The position numbers were made by a program, and so were the translations under genes. From sequence record PV660458: a stretch of DNA of 42,378 nt. The stretch is one strand, 5' to 3'. This DNA comes from Escherichia phage LF82-23. The notes below the pieces were generated by a model. It worked only from the letters and a program-made list of their open reading frames with translations, did no database searches and had not been told where the DNA came from. The number at the start of each line of letters is the position of its first letter. Position 1 is the first letter of the stretch. Positions 3,792-26,306 of the stretch are shown here, in pieces.

Positions 3792-4327
3792 TGACTAACT
3801 TTGAAATCTGTATGCGGTTCACCGGGCTGGCAGAAGGTGGTTACACCAAGCTGCCCGGCGATACCGGAGGGGAAACGAATCATGGAATTAGCGACGCTCG
3901 TGATGGCAAACTGGATGGCCGAGCTTGTGGTGTCCCTACTGGGCTTGGCGGCACTATTTGTGTACCTATCAAGCAGCTCACCAAAGCACAAGCCGAAGCA
4001 ATCTATCGACGGGATTACTACACCCCCATCCGAGGTGACGAACTTCACCCTGCGATTGCATGTGCCGTGTTTGACTACGGTGTCAACTCCGGTGTCTCCC
4101 GTGCGGCGAAAGCTCTACAGCGGGTATGCGGCGTTGCACAAGACGGGATTGTTGGCCCTGCTACCGTGGCAGCAGCCAAACGTCTGGAACCTCACTCCGC
4201 AGCAGCAGCCATCTGTGACCTTCGTATTGCGTTCCTAAAGGCTTCTACAGCCCCGACAGTGGTTCGCTATAGGGATGCCTTGGTTGCTCGTGCAAAACGC
4301 TGTAGCGCTTACTGTGCGACGCTGTAG
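3791..4327 (+). CDS. endolysin, glycoside hydrolase family 108-like N-terminal domain plus C-terminal peptidoglycan-binding-like domain
   Basis: N-terminal motif FTGLAEGGYTKLPGDTGGETNHGI matches the GH108 EGGY...D.GG.T..GI signature; C-terminal region resembles PG_binding_3-type domains; last gene before the non-coding terminus. Confidence 0.8.
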   Translation: MTNFEICMRFTGLAEGGYTKLPGDTGGETNHGISDARDGKLDGRACGVPTGLGGTICVPIKQLTKAQAEAIYRRDYYTPIRGDELHPAIACAVFDYGVNSGVSRAAKALQRVCGVAQDGIVGPATVAAAKRLEPHSAAAAICDLRIAFLKASTAPTVVRYRDALVARAKRCSAYCATL

Positions 4328-4544
4328 GGGTATCCGAAAGCTGATGCAATGAACAGGCCGTGGGTGCAATACCCCGGCTTGAAAATTGACTATTTGTACG
4401 TGCCCCTCCCTCGACCCAAATGACCGCGCGTGCCCCCATAGCGTGTGCGCGGTTTAGCCTCGCGACGTGCGCGATAATTGCTCGCGTGCGCTGCGCGGCG
4501 CGTCGAAAGGATTGCCTGCGTGCGGTATAGCTCGTGCGTGTCGC

Positions 4545-4900
4545 GTTTCATCGTCTGCCGTGTGGCGTGCTGTGCGCTGTCCTGCTGGCTGTGCTGTGCG
4601 GTGCTGTCCTATGGGGACGCTCTGCGCTGGCTGGCTGGTGCTGTGGTAGCGGTGCGGTCGGTCGGGTATCTGTCTCTTTTCGTGGCGCGGCGTGGTGCTG
4701 TGTGGTGGCGGTGGTGCTGCGTGGTGCTGTCCTGTCTGCTGGTCTACTGTCTGCGCCTGCCAGCTCTGCGCGTCGTGCTCTGCTACCTGCTGTTACTGTC
4801 CTACTGCCTTCACTGTCTGCCGTCTGTCAGTCCTACGGTCTGCCATCCGTCATCCGTTCGGCGCTCGCTTGTTTCGGCTGCGCCGCGCTCGCTCTGCGTA
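4545..4900. other. A-depleted, GT- then CT-rich low-complexity non-coding block
   Basis: Roughly 5% A on the + strand by eye over about 350 nt (e.g. 4681-4740 contains no A); degenerate short repeats (GCTGTG, GGTGCTG, CTGTC); ORFs here exist only because stop codons need A. Confidence 0.7.
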
Positions 4901-5060
4901 TCTAGCGATACTATATCACTATAGACACTTTCATAATTATCTATTGATATCAGTAACTTATAACCTATCTGATAACGGTATTCTGACCAGTGTTATGATT
5001 ATCTAATCAAACTTTAATCCTAATGATTACAGTAACTTATCACTTTTCTTGAAAATAATA
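4901..5060. repeat. AT-rich block with clustered short GATA/TATC-type palindromes (candidate terminus/ori/packaging region)
   Basis: TTGATATCA, TATCTGATA, TGATTATCTAATCA, CAGTAACTTAT x2 seen directly; lies between the A-depleted block and the early promoters. Confidence 0.5.
4919..4934 (-). promoter_or_regulatory. inverted copy of conserved 16-mer ATGAAAGTGTCTATAG (candidate phage RNAP promoter element)
   Basis: Reverse complement of 4919-4934 is identical to 25618-25633; extended match about 27 nt with one mismatch. Confidence 0.35.
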
Positions 5061-5061
5061 C

Positions 5062-5091
5062 TTGCAAACTGTTTTGGTTTTGTGCTGTAAT
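5062..5091 (+). promoter_or_regulatory. sigma70-type early promoter P1
   Basis: TTGCAA (5062-5067), 18-nt spacer, TGTAAT (5086-5091) preceded by TGn extended -10. Confidence 0.6.
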
Positions 5092-5165
5092 TCATCACGT
5101 CGAAAGGCACTAGCCCAGTAGACAAGATTGAACGGTAACACTGCTCTTTAACAATCTGGAGTGTA

Positions 5166-5194
5166 TTGACAAGGCAAGCTCACTATGCTGTAAT
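5166..5194 (+). promoter_or_regulatory. sigma70-type early promoter P2
   Basis: TTGACA (5166-5171), 17-nt spacer, TGTAAT (5189-5194) with TGc extended -10. Confidence 0.7.
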
Positions 5195-5302
5195 GCTTCC
5201 ACGTCAGCCAGCAAGCTAAACAGTCATTGATAAAGACGTTAAAACACACGCAGGCAAACTGGTACGGGTTATTCATCTCAGAACGGGCGCTGAATAAAAC
5301 GG

Positions 5303-5331
5303 TTGACAGGATGAAACGAGTATGCTGTAAT
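5303..5331 (+). promoter_or_regulatory. sigma70-type early promoter P3
   Basis: TTGACA (5303-5308), 17-nt spacer, TGTAAT (5326-5331) with TGc extended -10. Confidence 0.7.
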
Positions 5332-5382
5332 ACGCTCCAGATTGACAGGGCAGCAAGCCAGTCAGTCAGAAGTAAAAAGTAG

Positions 5383-5411
5383 TTGACACGCTGAATACGA
5401 TGTGATGTAAT
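5383..5411 (+). promoter_or_regulatory. sigma70-type early promoter P4
   Basis: TTGACA (5383-5388), 17-nt spacer, TGTAAT (5406-5411) with TGa extended -10. Confidence 0.7.
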
Positions 5412-5843
5412 CAGCACCGAGTTGAAAGGTTGCAAAACAACCTGCTCTGAGTGAACGTAAACAGGCCACGTAGTGTCTCGGCCTCATGGGTATCCGGCGC
5501 AGCTAGGAACTGGTGAGGGCACCGCCGAAAGGCAATAGGGGTAGCGCCCGGTGCGATGGGAACGGAGAAGCGCGATAGACGCAGCGCAGTATCAGCACAA
5601 TCCCGAACGTCTTATAAGGCGCGGAGTGAAGCGGGTAGGTAGGCAAGCTGGTAACGGTGAGCCGGACTGCTGGAGGACTCCTGAGAGTGGATGCAGACAA
5701 TATCCACGGCGCGAAATGGGCGGGGCGATTTTTCAGGGTAGTGAATCCGACAAGCCAATCAATGCCAACGAGTGCAGACTGTACGGCGCGTCACAATGGG
5801 TTCACTATCCACCTGAAAATAGCCAACAACTGGAGAAATTAAT

Positions 5844-6233
5844 ATGTACCGTATCTATGCAAGCGCATATCGTCAGGGCAACGCTGAGTCAGTCAATCTG
5901 GCGCTTCATTGCAAGGCACTGCGAACGGTGCAGGACATGTTCGGAGTGGTTCCGGTCACACTGACAGGCAAGTTCGACAATGCGTATGAGTTAAGCATGG
6001 TCTTCCCTGTCGATGGAATCTACGAAATCCGACAGGCTGTTAAGCTGTTTTGTAAAGCCTTCGAACAGGACTGCATCATGGTAGTGACCAAAGACGACGA
6101 TGCAATCTTCATGGACTCACCGTATCCGGGTAAGCCTGCTGGCAAGCTGGTCAGCAAGACTAACGAGGAAATGGAAGCCGGGCAGCATACCGCTTGGACT
6201 TACGATGGTGAGCAATTTTGGGTAGTGGAGTAA
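5844..6233 (+). CDS. hypothetical early protein (129 aa)
   Basis: First ORF after promoter array and leader; GGAG 9 nt upstream of ATG. Confidence 0.6.
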   Translation: MYRIYASAYRQGNAESVNLALHCKALRTVQDMFGVVPVTLTGKFDNAYELSMVFPVDGIYEIRQAVKLFCKAFEQDCIMVVTKDDDAIFMDSPYPGKPAGKLVSKTNEEMEAGQHTAWTYDGEQFWVVE

Positions 6234-11326: not shown

Positions 11327-11342
11327 ATGAAGGTGTCTATAT
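11327..11342 (+). promoter_or_regulatory. conserved motif ATGAAGGTGTCTATAT (candidate phage RNAP promoter), preceded by hairpin 11301-11325
   Basis: 15/16 identity with the 16-mer at 25618; 21 nt upstream of the first middle gene start. Confidence 0.35.
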
Positions 11343-23156: not shown

Positions 23157-25589
23157 GTGGATTTACTTGCAGAGCAGATTCGACTTGAAGAAGAAGCGCG
23201 AGCCAGACACCGCGAGGGCTGGCTGGATAATATCAAAGAGGCGATGGCCAGTGGCCGCGCCGGGTCGGTGCCGTTGCTCCAGCGTATGATGGTTGAGGCT
23301 TATCCTCTGGTCGAAGCTGCGATGCAAGAAACCCTGAACGAAACGACCCGTGGGTATGGTGCGCAGTACCGGACGTACATGCGTGAGATTGGCACCAAAG
23401 CGTGTGCCTCTCTCGCACTGAGCATGGCGGTGTCCGGTGCTGCGTCGGAGCAGGCGGTACTCAGCCTGCTCAAGAGCATGGGCAAGGCACTGATGGCTGA
23501 GGTGGTGTACCTCCGGGCGAAGCAGACCGGGCCACAGCAGGCGGCGTACATGGAGCGCGTTAAGCAGGATGTGAAGAAGTCTCGCTCGAAGTCAGCGAAC
23601 CACGTCTACAACAAAGCGCGTGCGTCGGCGGCGAACGTTGGGGTGGAGATTGATGTGCTGCCGCAGCGTGCGCTGATTACCATTGGCAAGCTGATGATGA
23701 AGTGCGTCGAGCCAACTGGTCTGGTGTCCACGATTCGCGTCGGCGGCAACCAGCGGCAGCGCGGTACGGCACACTTTGCACTGCATGAGGATGTGCTGGC
23801 TACGATGAACGACTGGCTGGACATGCCGCGTGCTGATGGCATGTGCTGCCCACCGCTGATTATCCCGCCGAAGCAGATTGCGCCGAACGGTCGCAGCGGT
23901 ATGTGGCATTCGGATGGGCAGGCGGCGATGTACCGGGTCATGAGTCGCATGAACCACAAAGGGTATCGTGCGTTGAACGTTGACCCGACCCCCGTTATAG
24001 AGCCGTGTATGATGCTCAGCAGCGTTCCGTACCGAGTTAACCCAATGGTACTGGAGTTCCTGCGAACGAACCGTACAGGCGTTATGGGGCTGCCTGTGCC
24101 GCCTCGTGAGCCTACACTTCCGTTTACCATCCCCGCTGGTGTGAGCTTCGCGCAGTACATCAGCAAGTTCCCACCAGAGATGCAGCAGCAGATGGACGCT
24201 GAGGCTCATGAGTACAAGGTGAAGACTCGCTTGTATTACAATGAGTTGCGTAAGTTCACATCGCAGATGCTGGCGCTGAACGGTGCAGTCAAAGAAGCAG
24301 ACAGGTACGCCCAGTATGATAGGATTTATCTCCCGACTTACGCCGATACGCGGGGCCGAATTTATTATTCTTCGACCCTTAACCCTCAGTCTATCGACGC
24401 GGTGCGAGCGCTGCTCGAACTTGCTGAACCAGTGGCTCTCGGAAGTGAGGGGCTGTTCTGGCTCAAGGTTCATGTTGCGAATTGCTTCGGCTACGACGCA
24501 ACCGACTTCGATGACCGGGCGGCGTGGACGGACAAAACACTCCCCCGACTACGTGAGGCGTGCCGTCTTCCAGAGGCATTTGATTCGTTCTGGTCAGAGG
24601 CCGATAGCCCTATCTCAGCGTGGGCTGCATCTGTTGAACTCATTCGAGCTATCGACAGCGGAAGTCCTGAGACTTATCCCTGCCGAGTGGTTACGCAATG
24701 GGATGCTACATGTTCAGGTCTCCAACACCTCAGCGCAATGCTACGAGATGAAGTTGGGGGTGCTGCTGTCAATCTTATCAATAGCGTGGGGCGAAAGGCA
24801 GACATATATCTCAAGACGGCAGCAGCGGCGATGCAGGCTCTTGAAGATAGTGAAGCGCAGTCACCGACGCAGATGGGTACGTGGCTTGTTTCAATCGGCA
24901 TTGTACGGGCGATGGCTAAGAAACCAGTGATGACGTACGTGTACGGGGCAACCCGGCACGGGATGGTGGACTACTACTGCCTGTACCTGCGTGAGAACCG
25001 GGTCAAGCTACCGGACGGCAAGAGCCTGCTGGAGTGTGCGCAGTTCATCGCAGAGTTCATGTGGAATGCAATCCCTCGCGTTGTGCCGAAGGCGGCAGAG
25101 CTGATGGCGTGGTTGCAGGCTATCGCGGTGGAGGCGGCAGCCAACGGCGAGTACGTGGAAATCATTGCACCGTCAGGGTTGCGGGTGGTTAACCTGTACC
25201 AAGCTAGCAAGGAGACGATGCTCAACAACATCAACCTCATGGGTATCCACAGCATTAAGCTGCGCGAGTATCTGGACAAGCCGGACGGCAGGAAGTGTGC
25301 CGCTGCGATTGCTCCGAATTTCGTACACGCCATGGATGCCAGCCACATGATGAAGGTGCTGTGGGAGATGTGGAATAACGGGGTGTACATGGTATCCATC
25401 CACGATTCGTTCGGGGTGGCGGCTGCACATGCCGGGCTACTTCACAAGGTCATTCGTGAAAAGTTCGTGCAGATGTACGAGCAACATGACCCAATTCAAC
25501 AACTTGCTGTACGATACAATGCTGTTGCACCTGAACGTGGCAATCTGGATATCCAGCTTGTGAAACAATCAAGCAAGTTTTTCTGCTAA
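23157..25589 (+). CDS. single-subunit DNA-directed RNA polymerase (T7-like)
   Basis: [25 protein letters not shown] and VSIHDSFG match T7 RNAP catalytic segments ([20 protein letters not shown], HDSFG); GTG start with AAGGAG 5 nt upstream. Confidence 0.9.
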   Translation: [810 protein letters not shown]

Positions 25590-25593
25590 TAAA

Positions 25594-25645
25594 TAGTGAT
25601 ATGTATCATTGACTTAAATGAAAGTGTCTATAGTGATATGTATCA
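25594..25645 (+). promoter_or_regulatory. repeat cluster downstream of RNAP gene: TAGTGATATGTATCA x2 flanking conserved 16-mer ATGAAAGTGTCTATAG (candidate phage promoter / origin)
   Basis: Direct repeats at 25594-25608 and 25631-25645; 16-mer at 25618-25633; location corresponds to the promoter/origin region after gene 1 in T7. Confidence 0.4.
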
Positions 25646-25886: not shown

Positions 25887-26306
25887 ATGAAAGTGTCTAC
25901 TATGGGAAATACATCACACACGACGATGCCACTCGACATTCGCCGTGCTGTGGCCGAAGGCATTCAAGCTGAGCGGCCATGGTCAGACCTATCTCCCGAT
26001 GTGATTGTTGACAGCATGTACGAGGCCACCGCCTCCGGTTGTGTTGACGTTTACATCACTGACGATGACGGCAGCCTCATGGCTGTTGCTCACATCGGCA
26101 GGTTATTCGATATTCATGTGGGTGAGATGGTGGTCGTTATGGCCTCATACGTCTGGCCCCAGTACAGAAACCGTGGAGTGATGCGTGCCATCCTCCGTGT
26201 ACTCAAAGACGTGGCCCGTTCTGCGGGTGTACGTTGGTGCGGTTACTCCCATATGGTGCGGCCTTACGTTCAGGAGTACCGCTTCATTGATTTGGAGAAA
26301 CCGTAA
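25887..26306 (+). CDS. hypothetical protein (139 aa); weak acyltransferase-like resemblance
   Basis: Start overlaps third copy of the conserved motif (ATGAAAGTGTCTACTA); segment YRNRGVMRAILRVL only loosely GNAT-like; start uncertain. Confidence 0.4.
   Translation: MKVSTMGNTSHTTMPLDIRRAVAEGIQAERPWSDLSPDVIVDSMYEATASGCVDVYITDDDGSLMAVAHIGRLFDIHVGEMVVVMASYVWPQYRNRGVMRAILRVLKDVARSAGVRWCGYSHMVRPYVQEYRFIDLEKP

Follow-up and report, generated by a model that had tools for sequence, protein, structure and literature searches.

The genome of Escherichia phage LF82-23 (sequence record PV660458; the whole stretch of 42,378 nucleotides is called the window below) carries, on the minus strand from position 4934 to 4919, a 16-nt element that is strongly supported by sequence comparison as a promoter of the phage's own RNA polymerase (RNAP), facing the left genome end. 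All long open reading frames (ORFs) of the window are on the plus strand, so this promoter would oppose every gene. We consider it probable that the element works like the phage promoters at 25618 and 11327, that it yields a leftward non-coding RNA, and that it thereby likely counters transcriptional read-through. It is the bonnellvirus counterpart of P001, an antisense promoter of the Phikmvvirus LUZ19, and the arrangement itself was already known.

The window is a circularly permuted genome of the genus Bonnellvirus (Autographiviridae), whose relatives are J8-65 and the ‘sur’ coliphages; 19 phage records, including J8-65, Danish ‘sur’ coliphages, Kc261, RZ4 and ROV85, match positions 4300-5500 at 81-95% identity. 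Its RNAP gene (23157-25589) encodes a protein whose match among solved structures (PDB) is T7 RNAP. The region that contains the element, 4901-5060, falls in the non-coding stretch that leads from the last late gene to the first early gene, and the endolysin gene ends at 4327. J8-65 has an annotated direct terminal repeat of 259 bp at both ends, with two identical copies, and alignment of the collapsed J8-65 junction onto the window places the probable physical left end at 4411 (between ccctccc and tcgacccaaatg) and a presumed terminal repeat at ~4411-4655, with its right edge near 4655. The record of LIMEzero, a Waewaevirus, seems to begin ~40 nt ahead of the likely physical left end (within positions 1-45), where gcctccc followed by tcgacactaatg matches the junction of J8-65 and the window.

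Copies of the promoter motif

The 16-mer ATGAAAGTGTCTATAG is found exactly at 4919-4934 on the minus strand and at 25618-25633 on the plus strand, where it directly follows the stop codon of the RNAP gene and would act as a late promoter. The identity between these two copies extends to 22 nt (ATGAAAGTGTCTATAGTGATAT; 4934 to 4913 at the left end, so that the leftward promoter is taken to occupy 4913-4934), and with 84,756 positions on the two strands and 4^16 possible 16-mers, only ~2e-5 exact matches are expected in this genome. When up to three mismatches are allowed, the genome holds four matches against 0.17 expected, a number that 0 of 100 shuffles reached. The other two copies are also on the plus strand. 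A putative middle promoter, ATGAAGGTGTCTATAT (11327-11342; two mismatches), stands directly 3' of a hairpin and upstream of the primase and helicase genes, and a fourth promoter-like copy, ATGAAAGTGTCTACTA (25887-25902; three mismatches), overlaps the ATG of the ORF at 25887-26306. This is thus a recurrent motif of ~16-23 bp in a phage with a T7-type polymerase, and its plus-strand copies head gene blocks. In the LIMEzero record a ‘putative phage specific promoter’ is annotated at the corresponding post-RNAP site and at a site before the primase gene where a terminator is followed by a promoter. The motif ends in ...CTATAG, which resembles promoters of the T7 and SP6 type, and because of this likeness G 4919 (± 2) is the predicted start site, from which transcription would run toward lower coordinates.

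The fourth copy appears to be a functional internal promoter that lies within the start of a gene. Its ORF belongs to PHROG 3986, and codons 2-4 shift with the promoter allele, reading MKVS, MKVT or MKAT according to lineage; ORF36 of LIMEzero starts with the same arrangement of promoter over start codon. In addition, the annotated start codon of the coding sequences at 2615 in usur and at 5664 in J8-65 is the ATG of a promoter motif, and these two gene starts are probably mis-called.

Co-variation of the promoter with the polymerase

Across 14 bonnellviruses the motif exists as four allele cores (five full-length variants), and every site read in a given genome has one and the same core, the minus-strand copy at the left end included. 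The core is GTGTCT in the window, BHUENT7, Ec1-ASingh and altidsur, where ATGAAAGTGTCTATAG stands both at the left end (minus strand) and after the RNAP gene (plus strand). The same two sites read ATGAAAGTGACTATAG in glasur and RZ4 (core GTGACT) and ATGAAAGCTACTATAG in Kc261 and usur (core GCTACT). J8-65 and Lidtsur have the core GTAACTG, and in each of them the copies within the genome differ in the last few bases (ATGAAAGTAACTGTAG at the left end and ATGAAAGTAACTGTTC after the RNAP gene in J8-65; ATGAAAGTAACTGTTA and ATGAAAGTAACTGAAA, respectively, in Lidtsur). For mellemsur and HHU8 (GTGTCT) and for ROV85 and forsur (GTGACT), the left-end copy alone was read.

The polymerase changes with its promoters. 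In a comparison of six close bonnellviruses, 9 of the 13 positions at RNAP residues 687-699 (codons at 25215-25253, plus strand) vary between allele groups, versus 113 of 810 positions overall (Fisher P=6.6e-6), which makes this segment a hot spot of allele-specific substitutions; its sequence is TMLNNINLMGIHS in the window, and glasur has IALNNINLMGIHG and Kc261 SPM-HLHLMGVHQ there. These residues align with the specificity loop of T7 RNAP, and N693 of the window pairs with N748 of T7. In T7 structures it is promoter bases -7 to -11 that the specificity loop reads. With G 4919 as +1, the variable bases would fall at -8 to -6 in most lineages, and J8-65 and Lidtsur vary additionally at -3 and at the last two positions. 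It is because of the placement of the plus-strand copies, the concerted change of alleles and the co-varying polymerase that the 16-mer can be assigned, with strong support, to the phage RNAP.

Leftward promoters at the left end of related genomes

In LUZ19, ONT-cappable-seq identified four phage-specific promoters, one of which, P001, was mapped by experiment to the early region, on the strand that carries no genes (Putzeys et al., 2024, PMC10914365). Its antisense transcripts extend to the right genome end, over gp47-49, and 15 further Phikmvvirus species have the same antisense promoter (PMC10914365). We located the LUZ19 motif at 751 on the minus strand, to the right of the terminal repeat (1-472) and to the left of the sigma-70 promoters, which start at 913, and the plus strand of LUZ19 contains 6.7% A over positions 1-730. 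The window has the same order of elements, with a phage motif that opposes all genes and lies between the presumed terminal repeat and host-type early promoters, as does J8-65 (repeat at 1-259, promoter at 548 on the minus strand, early promoters from ~690).

The earlier sequence-only reading of the window had reported the inverted exact 16-mer shared with the post-RNAP site; the two copies are linked in function, the left-end element behaving as a promoter copy. Its suggestion that the minus-strand orientation would direct transcription toward the terminus is also supported, since homology with J8-65 puts the terminus ~510 bp from the leftward promoter. It had also called for a comparison with phiKMV-like phages, and this leads to the antisense promoter of LUZ19 in the equivalent place (PMC10914365).

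The arrangement extends to further lineages. LIMEzero carries TATGAAGGCAAGCACTAAGG on the minus strand at 656, with an A-poor block on one side and, on the other, an AT-rich stretch that leads to its annotated host promoters; this copy and the one at the start of ORF36 were found here, and both are without annotation in the record. Among uncultivated contigs, IMG/VR loci were anchored on TerL and inverted pairs were sought by an 18-mer search with at most three mismatches, which recovered the positive control (L024) and replaced an exact 11-mer inverted-repeat search that had missed it. Three loci, L026, L033 and L099, have a minus-strand copy 0-190 nt to the right of an A-poor block and a matching plus-strand copy elsewhere. 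Their TerL identities are 77% (L026, with a LIMEzero-like motif), 42% (L033) and 41% (L099), and the last two share a motif of the TAATGTNACATA type. The wider distribution of this arrangement, with unrelated motifs, argues for a selected function.

Other observations weigh against the proposed reading. The 18-mer search at the same threshold found no inverted pair in loci L078, L081 and L096, and L028 has a promoter-like minus-strand sequence for which no matching plus-strand copy was found within the locus. Orientation is not universal in this supergroup, since the strong left-end promoter S2 of KP34 (nt 475-490), validated in vitro (PMC6834552), is on the plus strand and points rightward. 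The start site, strength and timing of the window promoter are all predictions, for this phage as for any bonnellvirus, and the positions of its terminal repeat and physical left end derive from the J8-65 alignment. In addition, the insulating and antisense role is a hypothesis of the LUZ19 authors, for LUZ19 as well.

The A-depleted block and the predicted leftward RNA

The template for the predicted leftward RNA is a block at 4411-4905 that includes the presumed terminal repeat and in which the plus strand contains 7.1% A, versus 22.9% genome-wide; its poorest 350-nt windows contain 4.3% A, and no other part of the genome drops below 12% for A or T. The downstream side of the promoter is 61-66% GC and A-poor, and the AT-rich DNA is on its upstream side. 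Because it would be copied from this block, the leftward RNA is predicted to be poor in U. Its first 200 nt are 62-70% purine with more G than C, later stretches are rich in C and A and poor in U, and nt 16-165 are 68% purine, versus a genome-wide 99th percentile of 63%. This composition is not particular to the window. Nine genomes or contigs were examined, from Bonnellvirus, Waewaevirus (LIMEzero), Phikmvvirus (LUZ19) and the three uncultivated IMG/VR loci named above, and in all of them purines make up 58-76% of each 50-nt window over the initial ~200 nt of the leftward RNA as predicted, with G at least equal to C and little U. The sequence of the block shows little conservation between J8-65 and the window, and what is kept, across at least four lineages, is its composition.

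The spacing between the right repeat edge and the predicted leftward start is also similar (~260-275 bp) in sequences without similarity to one another, at ~274 bp in J8-65 (259 to 533), ~260 bp in LUZ19 (472 to 733) and ~264 bp in the window (~4655 to 4919, with the edge placed by alignment). About 12 bp to the right of the presumed repeat edge, at 4667-4682 on the plus strand, the window has TATCTGTCTCTTTTCG; it is conserved in J8-65, as CTATCTATCTTTTTTCG, and is recognisable in LIMEzero. It resembles the class II pause and termination signal of T7 RNAP, ATCTGTT plus a T-run, which marks the T7 concatemer junction, and it would be met by transcription that reads through rightward.

The leftward RNA is predicted to begin with a small 5' hairpin, GUGAUA-UAG-UAUCGC (4905-4919, minus strand). 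The late transcript is predicted to have a comparable hairpin at +1, and the J8-65 version is built from other bases (GUGUAU...AUACGC); these hairpins are small, and their fold z-scores are not significant. Such an RNA hairpin would explain the GATA...TATC palindrome beside the 16-mer (GATACTATATC), which is better read as part of the RNA 5' end.

No coding function is apparent in this block. The plus-strand ORFs within it (148, 123 and 104 aa; 4478-5006) were rejected as artefacts, as a strand without A cannot hold a stop codon, and the minus-strand ORF at 4551-4390 was also set aside, its length differing in J8-65 when compared by eye. A PHROGs search matched no protein family for the ORFs at 4478-4921, 4692-5003 and 4551-4390 (minus strand), an Rfam search of 4250-5550 at a lax threshold returned one chance-level match only, and a generic scan of 3800-5900 found no terminator-like site on either strand. 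Such ORFs are also found in the equivalent regions of Kc261, forsur, HHU8, ROV85 and glasur, and several public records place a ‘hypothetical protein’ there.

The AT-rich spacer and the early promoters

A spacer of ~29% GC (4935-5062) separates the leftward phage promoter from the first early promoter, which faces rightward. The sequence-only reading had described an AT-rich cluster of palindromes next to a GC-rich block and had proposed that it binds protein. The AT-rich stretch is real, and its GC-rich neighbor is better called A-depleted. The palindromes that were named, TGATATCA (4945-4952), TATCTGATA (4966-4974) and TGATTATCTAATCA (4996-5009), are present, but their number is at the level of chance, with 8 palindromes with arms of at least 4 versus 4.9 ± 2.5 in dinucleotide shuffles (P=0.15) and a longest arm of 6 (P=0.29). 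Most are not conserved in close relatives either: TGATATCA, TGATTATCTAATCA and TTTTCTTGAAAA are each lost in part of them, and none is kept in J8-65 or Lidtsur, in which the 16-mer is kept. The proposal that the palindromes form a protein-binding cluster, or act as operators, was thus rejected on their number and conservation. GATA and TATC tetramers are more frequent than in shuffles (9 versus 3.7 ± 1.65; P=0.005).

The duplication of CAGTAACTTAT, also reported from the sequence, stands: an exact 11-mer repeat within 160 bp has P=0.014 in dinucleotide shuffles, and this 11-mer is the core of a 19-nt direct repeat that has no other match in the genome and that extends to 30 nt at 80% identity. 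Copy 1 (4943-4961, plus strand) is degenerate in the window (ATTGATATCAGTAACTTAT; most relatives have AATGATTACAGTAACTTAT), and copy 2 (5022-5040, plus strand; AATGATTACAGTAACTTAT), 79 bp away, is better conserved (AATGATTCCAGTGACTTAT in J8-65). Two perfect copies are present in altidsur, Kc261, usur and others. Relative to the leftward promoter, one copy spans about -25 to -43; relative to the first early promoter, the other spans about -57 to -77, and the repeat could be a binding site for a factor. Comparison by eye gave no good or conserved match to IHF sites, DnaA boxes or Fur boxes in the AT-rich stretch. In an alignment of 14 left ends, the segments conserved across the genus are the promoter, a GATACGCAG block downstream of it, an AATCAAA..TTTA block, the second repeat copy and a TGAAAATAAT.CTTGCAA stretch that runs into the first early promoter.

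The early promoters that follow on the plus strand are sigma-70-like and conserved in relatives. The first, TTGCAA-N18-TGTAAT, is at 5063-5092, and three others, at 5166-5194, 5303-5331 and 5383-5411, perfectly match TTGACA-N14-TGnTGTAAT, for which 0 matches are expected. All four have TGTAAT as the second hexamer, TGn before it and a perfect or near-perfect TTGACA, and TGTAAT is also used in LIMEzero. A generic sigma-70 scan of 3800-5900 returned no promoter, because TGTAAT has G at the normally invariant position 2, and it was a custom pattern that then found these sites.

Proposed function and alternative explanations

The data can be combined into a model in which the leftward promoter, ~264 bp to the right of the presumed terminal repeat and divergent from the early promoters for host RNAP, the first of which begins at 5063, would be used once the phage RNAP is present, in middle to late infection. 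Transcription would start at about G 4919 and yield an RNA with a small 5' hairpin that encodes nothing and is copied from the A-depleted block. On a monomeric genome the polymerase would run off the left end after ~510 nt, and on a concatemer the RNA would cross the terminal repeat and become antisense to the lysis and terminase genes, as for LUZ19 P001. The likely role of such a promoter would be to oppose late read-through across the concatemer junction into the early region, with production of antisense RNA, and the AT-rich stretch may serve as a spacer and upstream region common to the two divergent promoter sets. This resembles the suggestion of the LUZ19 authors that P001 may stop late transcription from entering the early genes on the circularised genome (PMC10914365).

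A possibility that is compatible with a promoter, and would give it its true function, is that the left end is a replication origin, in which the leftward transcript acts as a primer or forms an R-loop and is extended by the phage DNA polymerase; a U-poor RNA rich in G and purines would stay on its pyrimidine-rich template, and the adjacent AT-rich stretch would aid strand opening. RNA:DNA hybrids are most stable when the RNA is rich in purines and poor in U, the T7-like RNAP of mitochondria primes replication via a G-rich R-loop, and T7 origins are RNAP promoters beside AT-rich DNA. The purine content of the first ~200 nt in all nine genomes and contigs, its excess over the genome-wide 99th percentile in the window, and the retention of block composition where sequence has diverged from J8-65 fit this idea, and the purine-rich, U-poor leader therefore keeps a role in priming or in terminal-repeat processing in play. 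However, while the T7 primary origin (phi1.1A/B plus AT-rich DNA) likewise joins a phage-RNAP promoter to an AT-rich stretch, the AT-rich DNA is downstream of the promoter in T7, and in the window it is upstream and the transcribed DNA is GC-rich, which is not the layout of a T7-type origin. LUZ19 has no AT-rich spacer, the left end of KP34 is similarly A-poor and pyrimidine-rich yet its promoter faces the other way, so that the composition may serve something else, and a literature search found no mapped origin in phiKMV-like phages. We regard an origin as unlikely. Also unlikely, if a little less so, is the more general proposal that promoter and transcribed block form one conserved module that acts on DNA and not in gene regulation, in which an unusually stable RNA:DNA hybrid over the left end and terminal repeat primes replication or drives duplication and processing of the repeat at the concatemer junction.

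The leftward polymerase might alternatively take part in concatemer processing and packaging, by opening or marking the junction for the terminase cut and repeat duplication. The leftward transcript has to pass through the terminal repeat, the distance from promoter to repeat edge is similar in unrelated sequences, and T7 DNA maturation needs RNAP pausing at a concatemer-junction signal. This evidence is purely positional, the spacing is backed by two annotated repeat edges only, the relevant T7 transcription arrives from the other side (rightward, from phiOR), and the palindromes, as possible terminase sites, are not conserved; a packaging function thus seems improbable. Slightly more improbable still is that the AT-rich stretch is an array of regulator sites that controls the early promoters, with the 16-mer incidental to it. 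The enrichment of GATA and TATC, the 19-nt repeat, unique to two places and perfect in both copies in several relatives, and the many TATC motifs seen by eye in the equivalent AT-rich stretch of LIMEzero would be expected of such an array, but the palindromes neither exceed chance nor persist in J8-65 and Lidtsur, where the 16-mer does, and an element that changes in concert with the other promoter copies cannot be incidental. Finally, the left-end 16-mer could be a chance match or a dead relic of duplication without activity. We give this almost no weight: an exact match is hardly expected in a genome of this size, the left-end copy tracks every allele change of the other sites, which effectively refutes the idea, the arrangement recurs in place and orientation in other genera with unrelated motifs, and the LUZ19 counterpart is active in vivo (PMC10914365). 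A leftward promoter of the phage RNAP, with a likely role against read-through, accordingly remains our preferred explanation.

Implications

A literature search found no published promoter consensus for Bonnellvirus, and a promoter-mining paper from 2025 makes no mention of the genus, so these viruses gain a well-supported consensus from the present analysis. The natural pairs of polymerase and promoter alleles, which differ at few loop residues, are useful for engineering orthogonal RNAP-promoter systems. The backward left-end promoter, known from Pseudomonas phikmvviruses, is extended to enterobacterial genera with unrelated motifs, and the conserved, U-poor and purine-rich leader is a concrete property that points to function. 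These findings also bear on annotation, in that the ORFs of the A-depleted block are artefacts and several annotated start codons are the ATG of a promoter motif.

Comparison with known systems

The window shares with phiOL of T7 and S2 of KP34 the placement of a phage-RNAP promoter copy at the non-coding left end, with the terminal repeat on one side and the early promoters for host RNAP on the other. Both phiOL and S2 point rightward, with the genes, and the window element points leftward. On the minus strand of KP34 at ~445-460, at the right border of its pyrimidine-rich left-end block and just upstream of S2, is the sequence AATGAAAGTAAG, which has 11 nt in common with the leftward promoter of J8-65 (AATGAAAGTAACTGTAG), a likeness that may be fortuitous or a relic.

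LIMEzero resembles the window in its layout of four sites, with copies at the left end (minus strand), before the primase gene, after the RNAP gene and at a gene start (ORF36), and differs in its consensus, (T/A)AT(G/A)AAGGCAAGCACTA(A/T)G(G/A). Promoter-like copies are also seen inside an internal-virion-protein gene, ~4.4 kb upstream of TerL, in LIMEzero (33866, plus strand) and in L026 (5627, plus strand), and these parallel the reported structural-region promoters of KP34 (33721) and LUZ19 (P009); the window, searched with as many as three mismatches allowed, has no such copy.

LUZ19 differs from the window in genus and host, it is without an AT-rich spacer, its motif (GGATATGTCACACACAATGG) is unrelated to ATGAAAGTGTCTATAG, and its P001 is known from transcripts, whereas the window promoter is predicted from sequence. 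The two systems are alike in that the antisense promoter uses the same motif as the late promoters of its own phage, is on the strand opposite to the genes, stands ~260 bp from the edge of the repeat and is followed by a block, strongly A-poor on the plus strand, that reaches to the left end.

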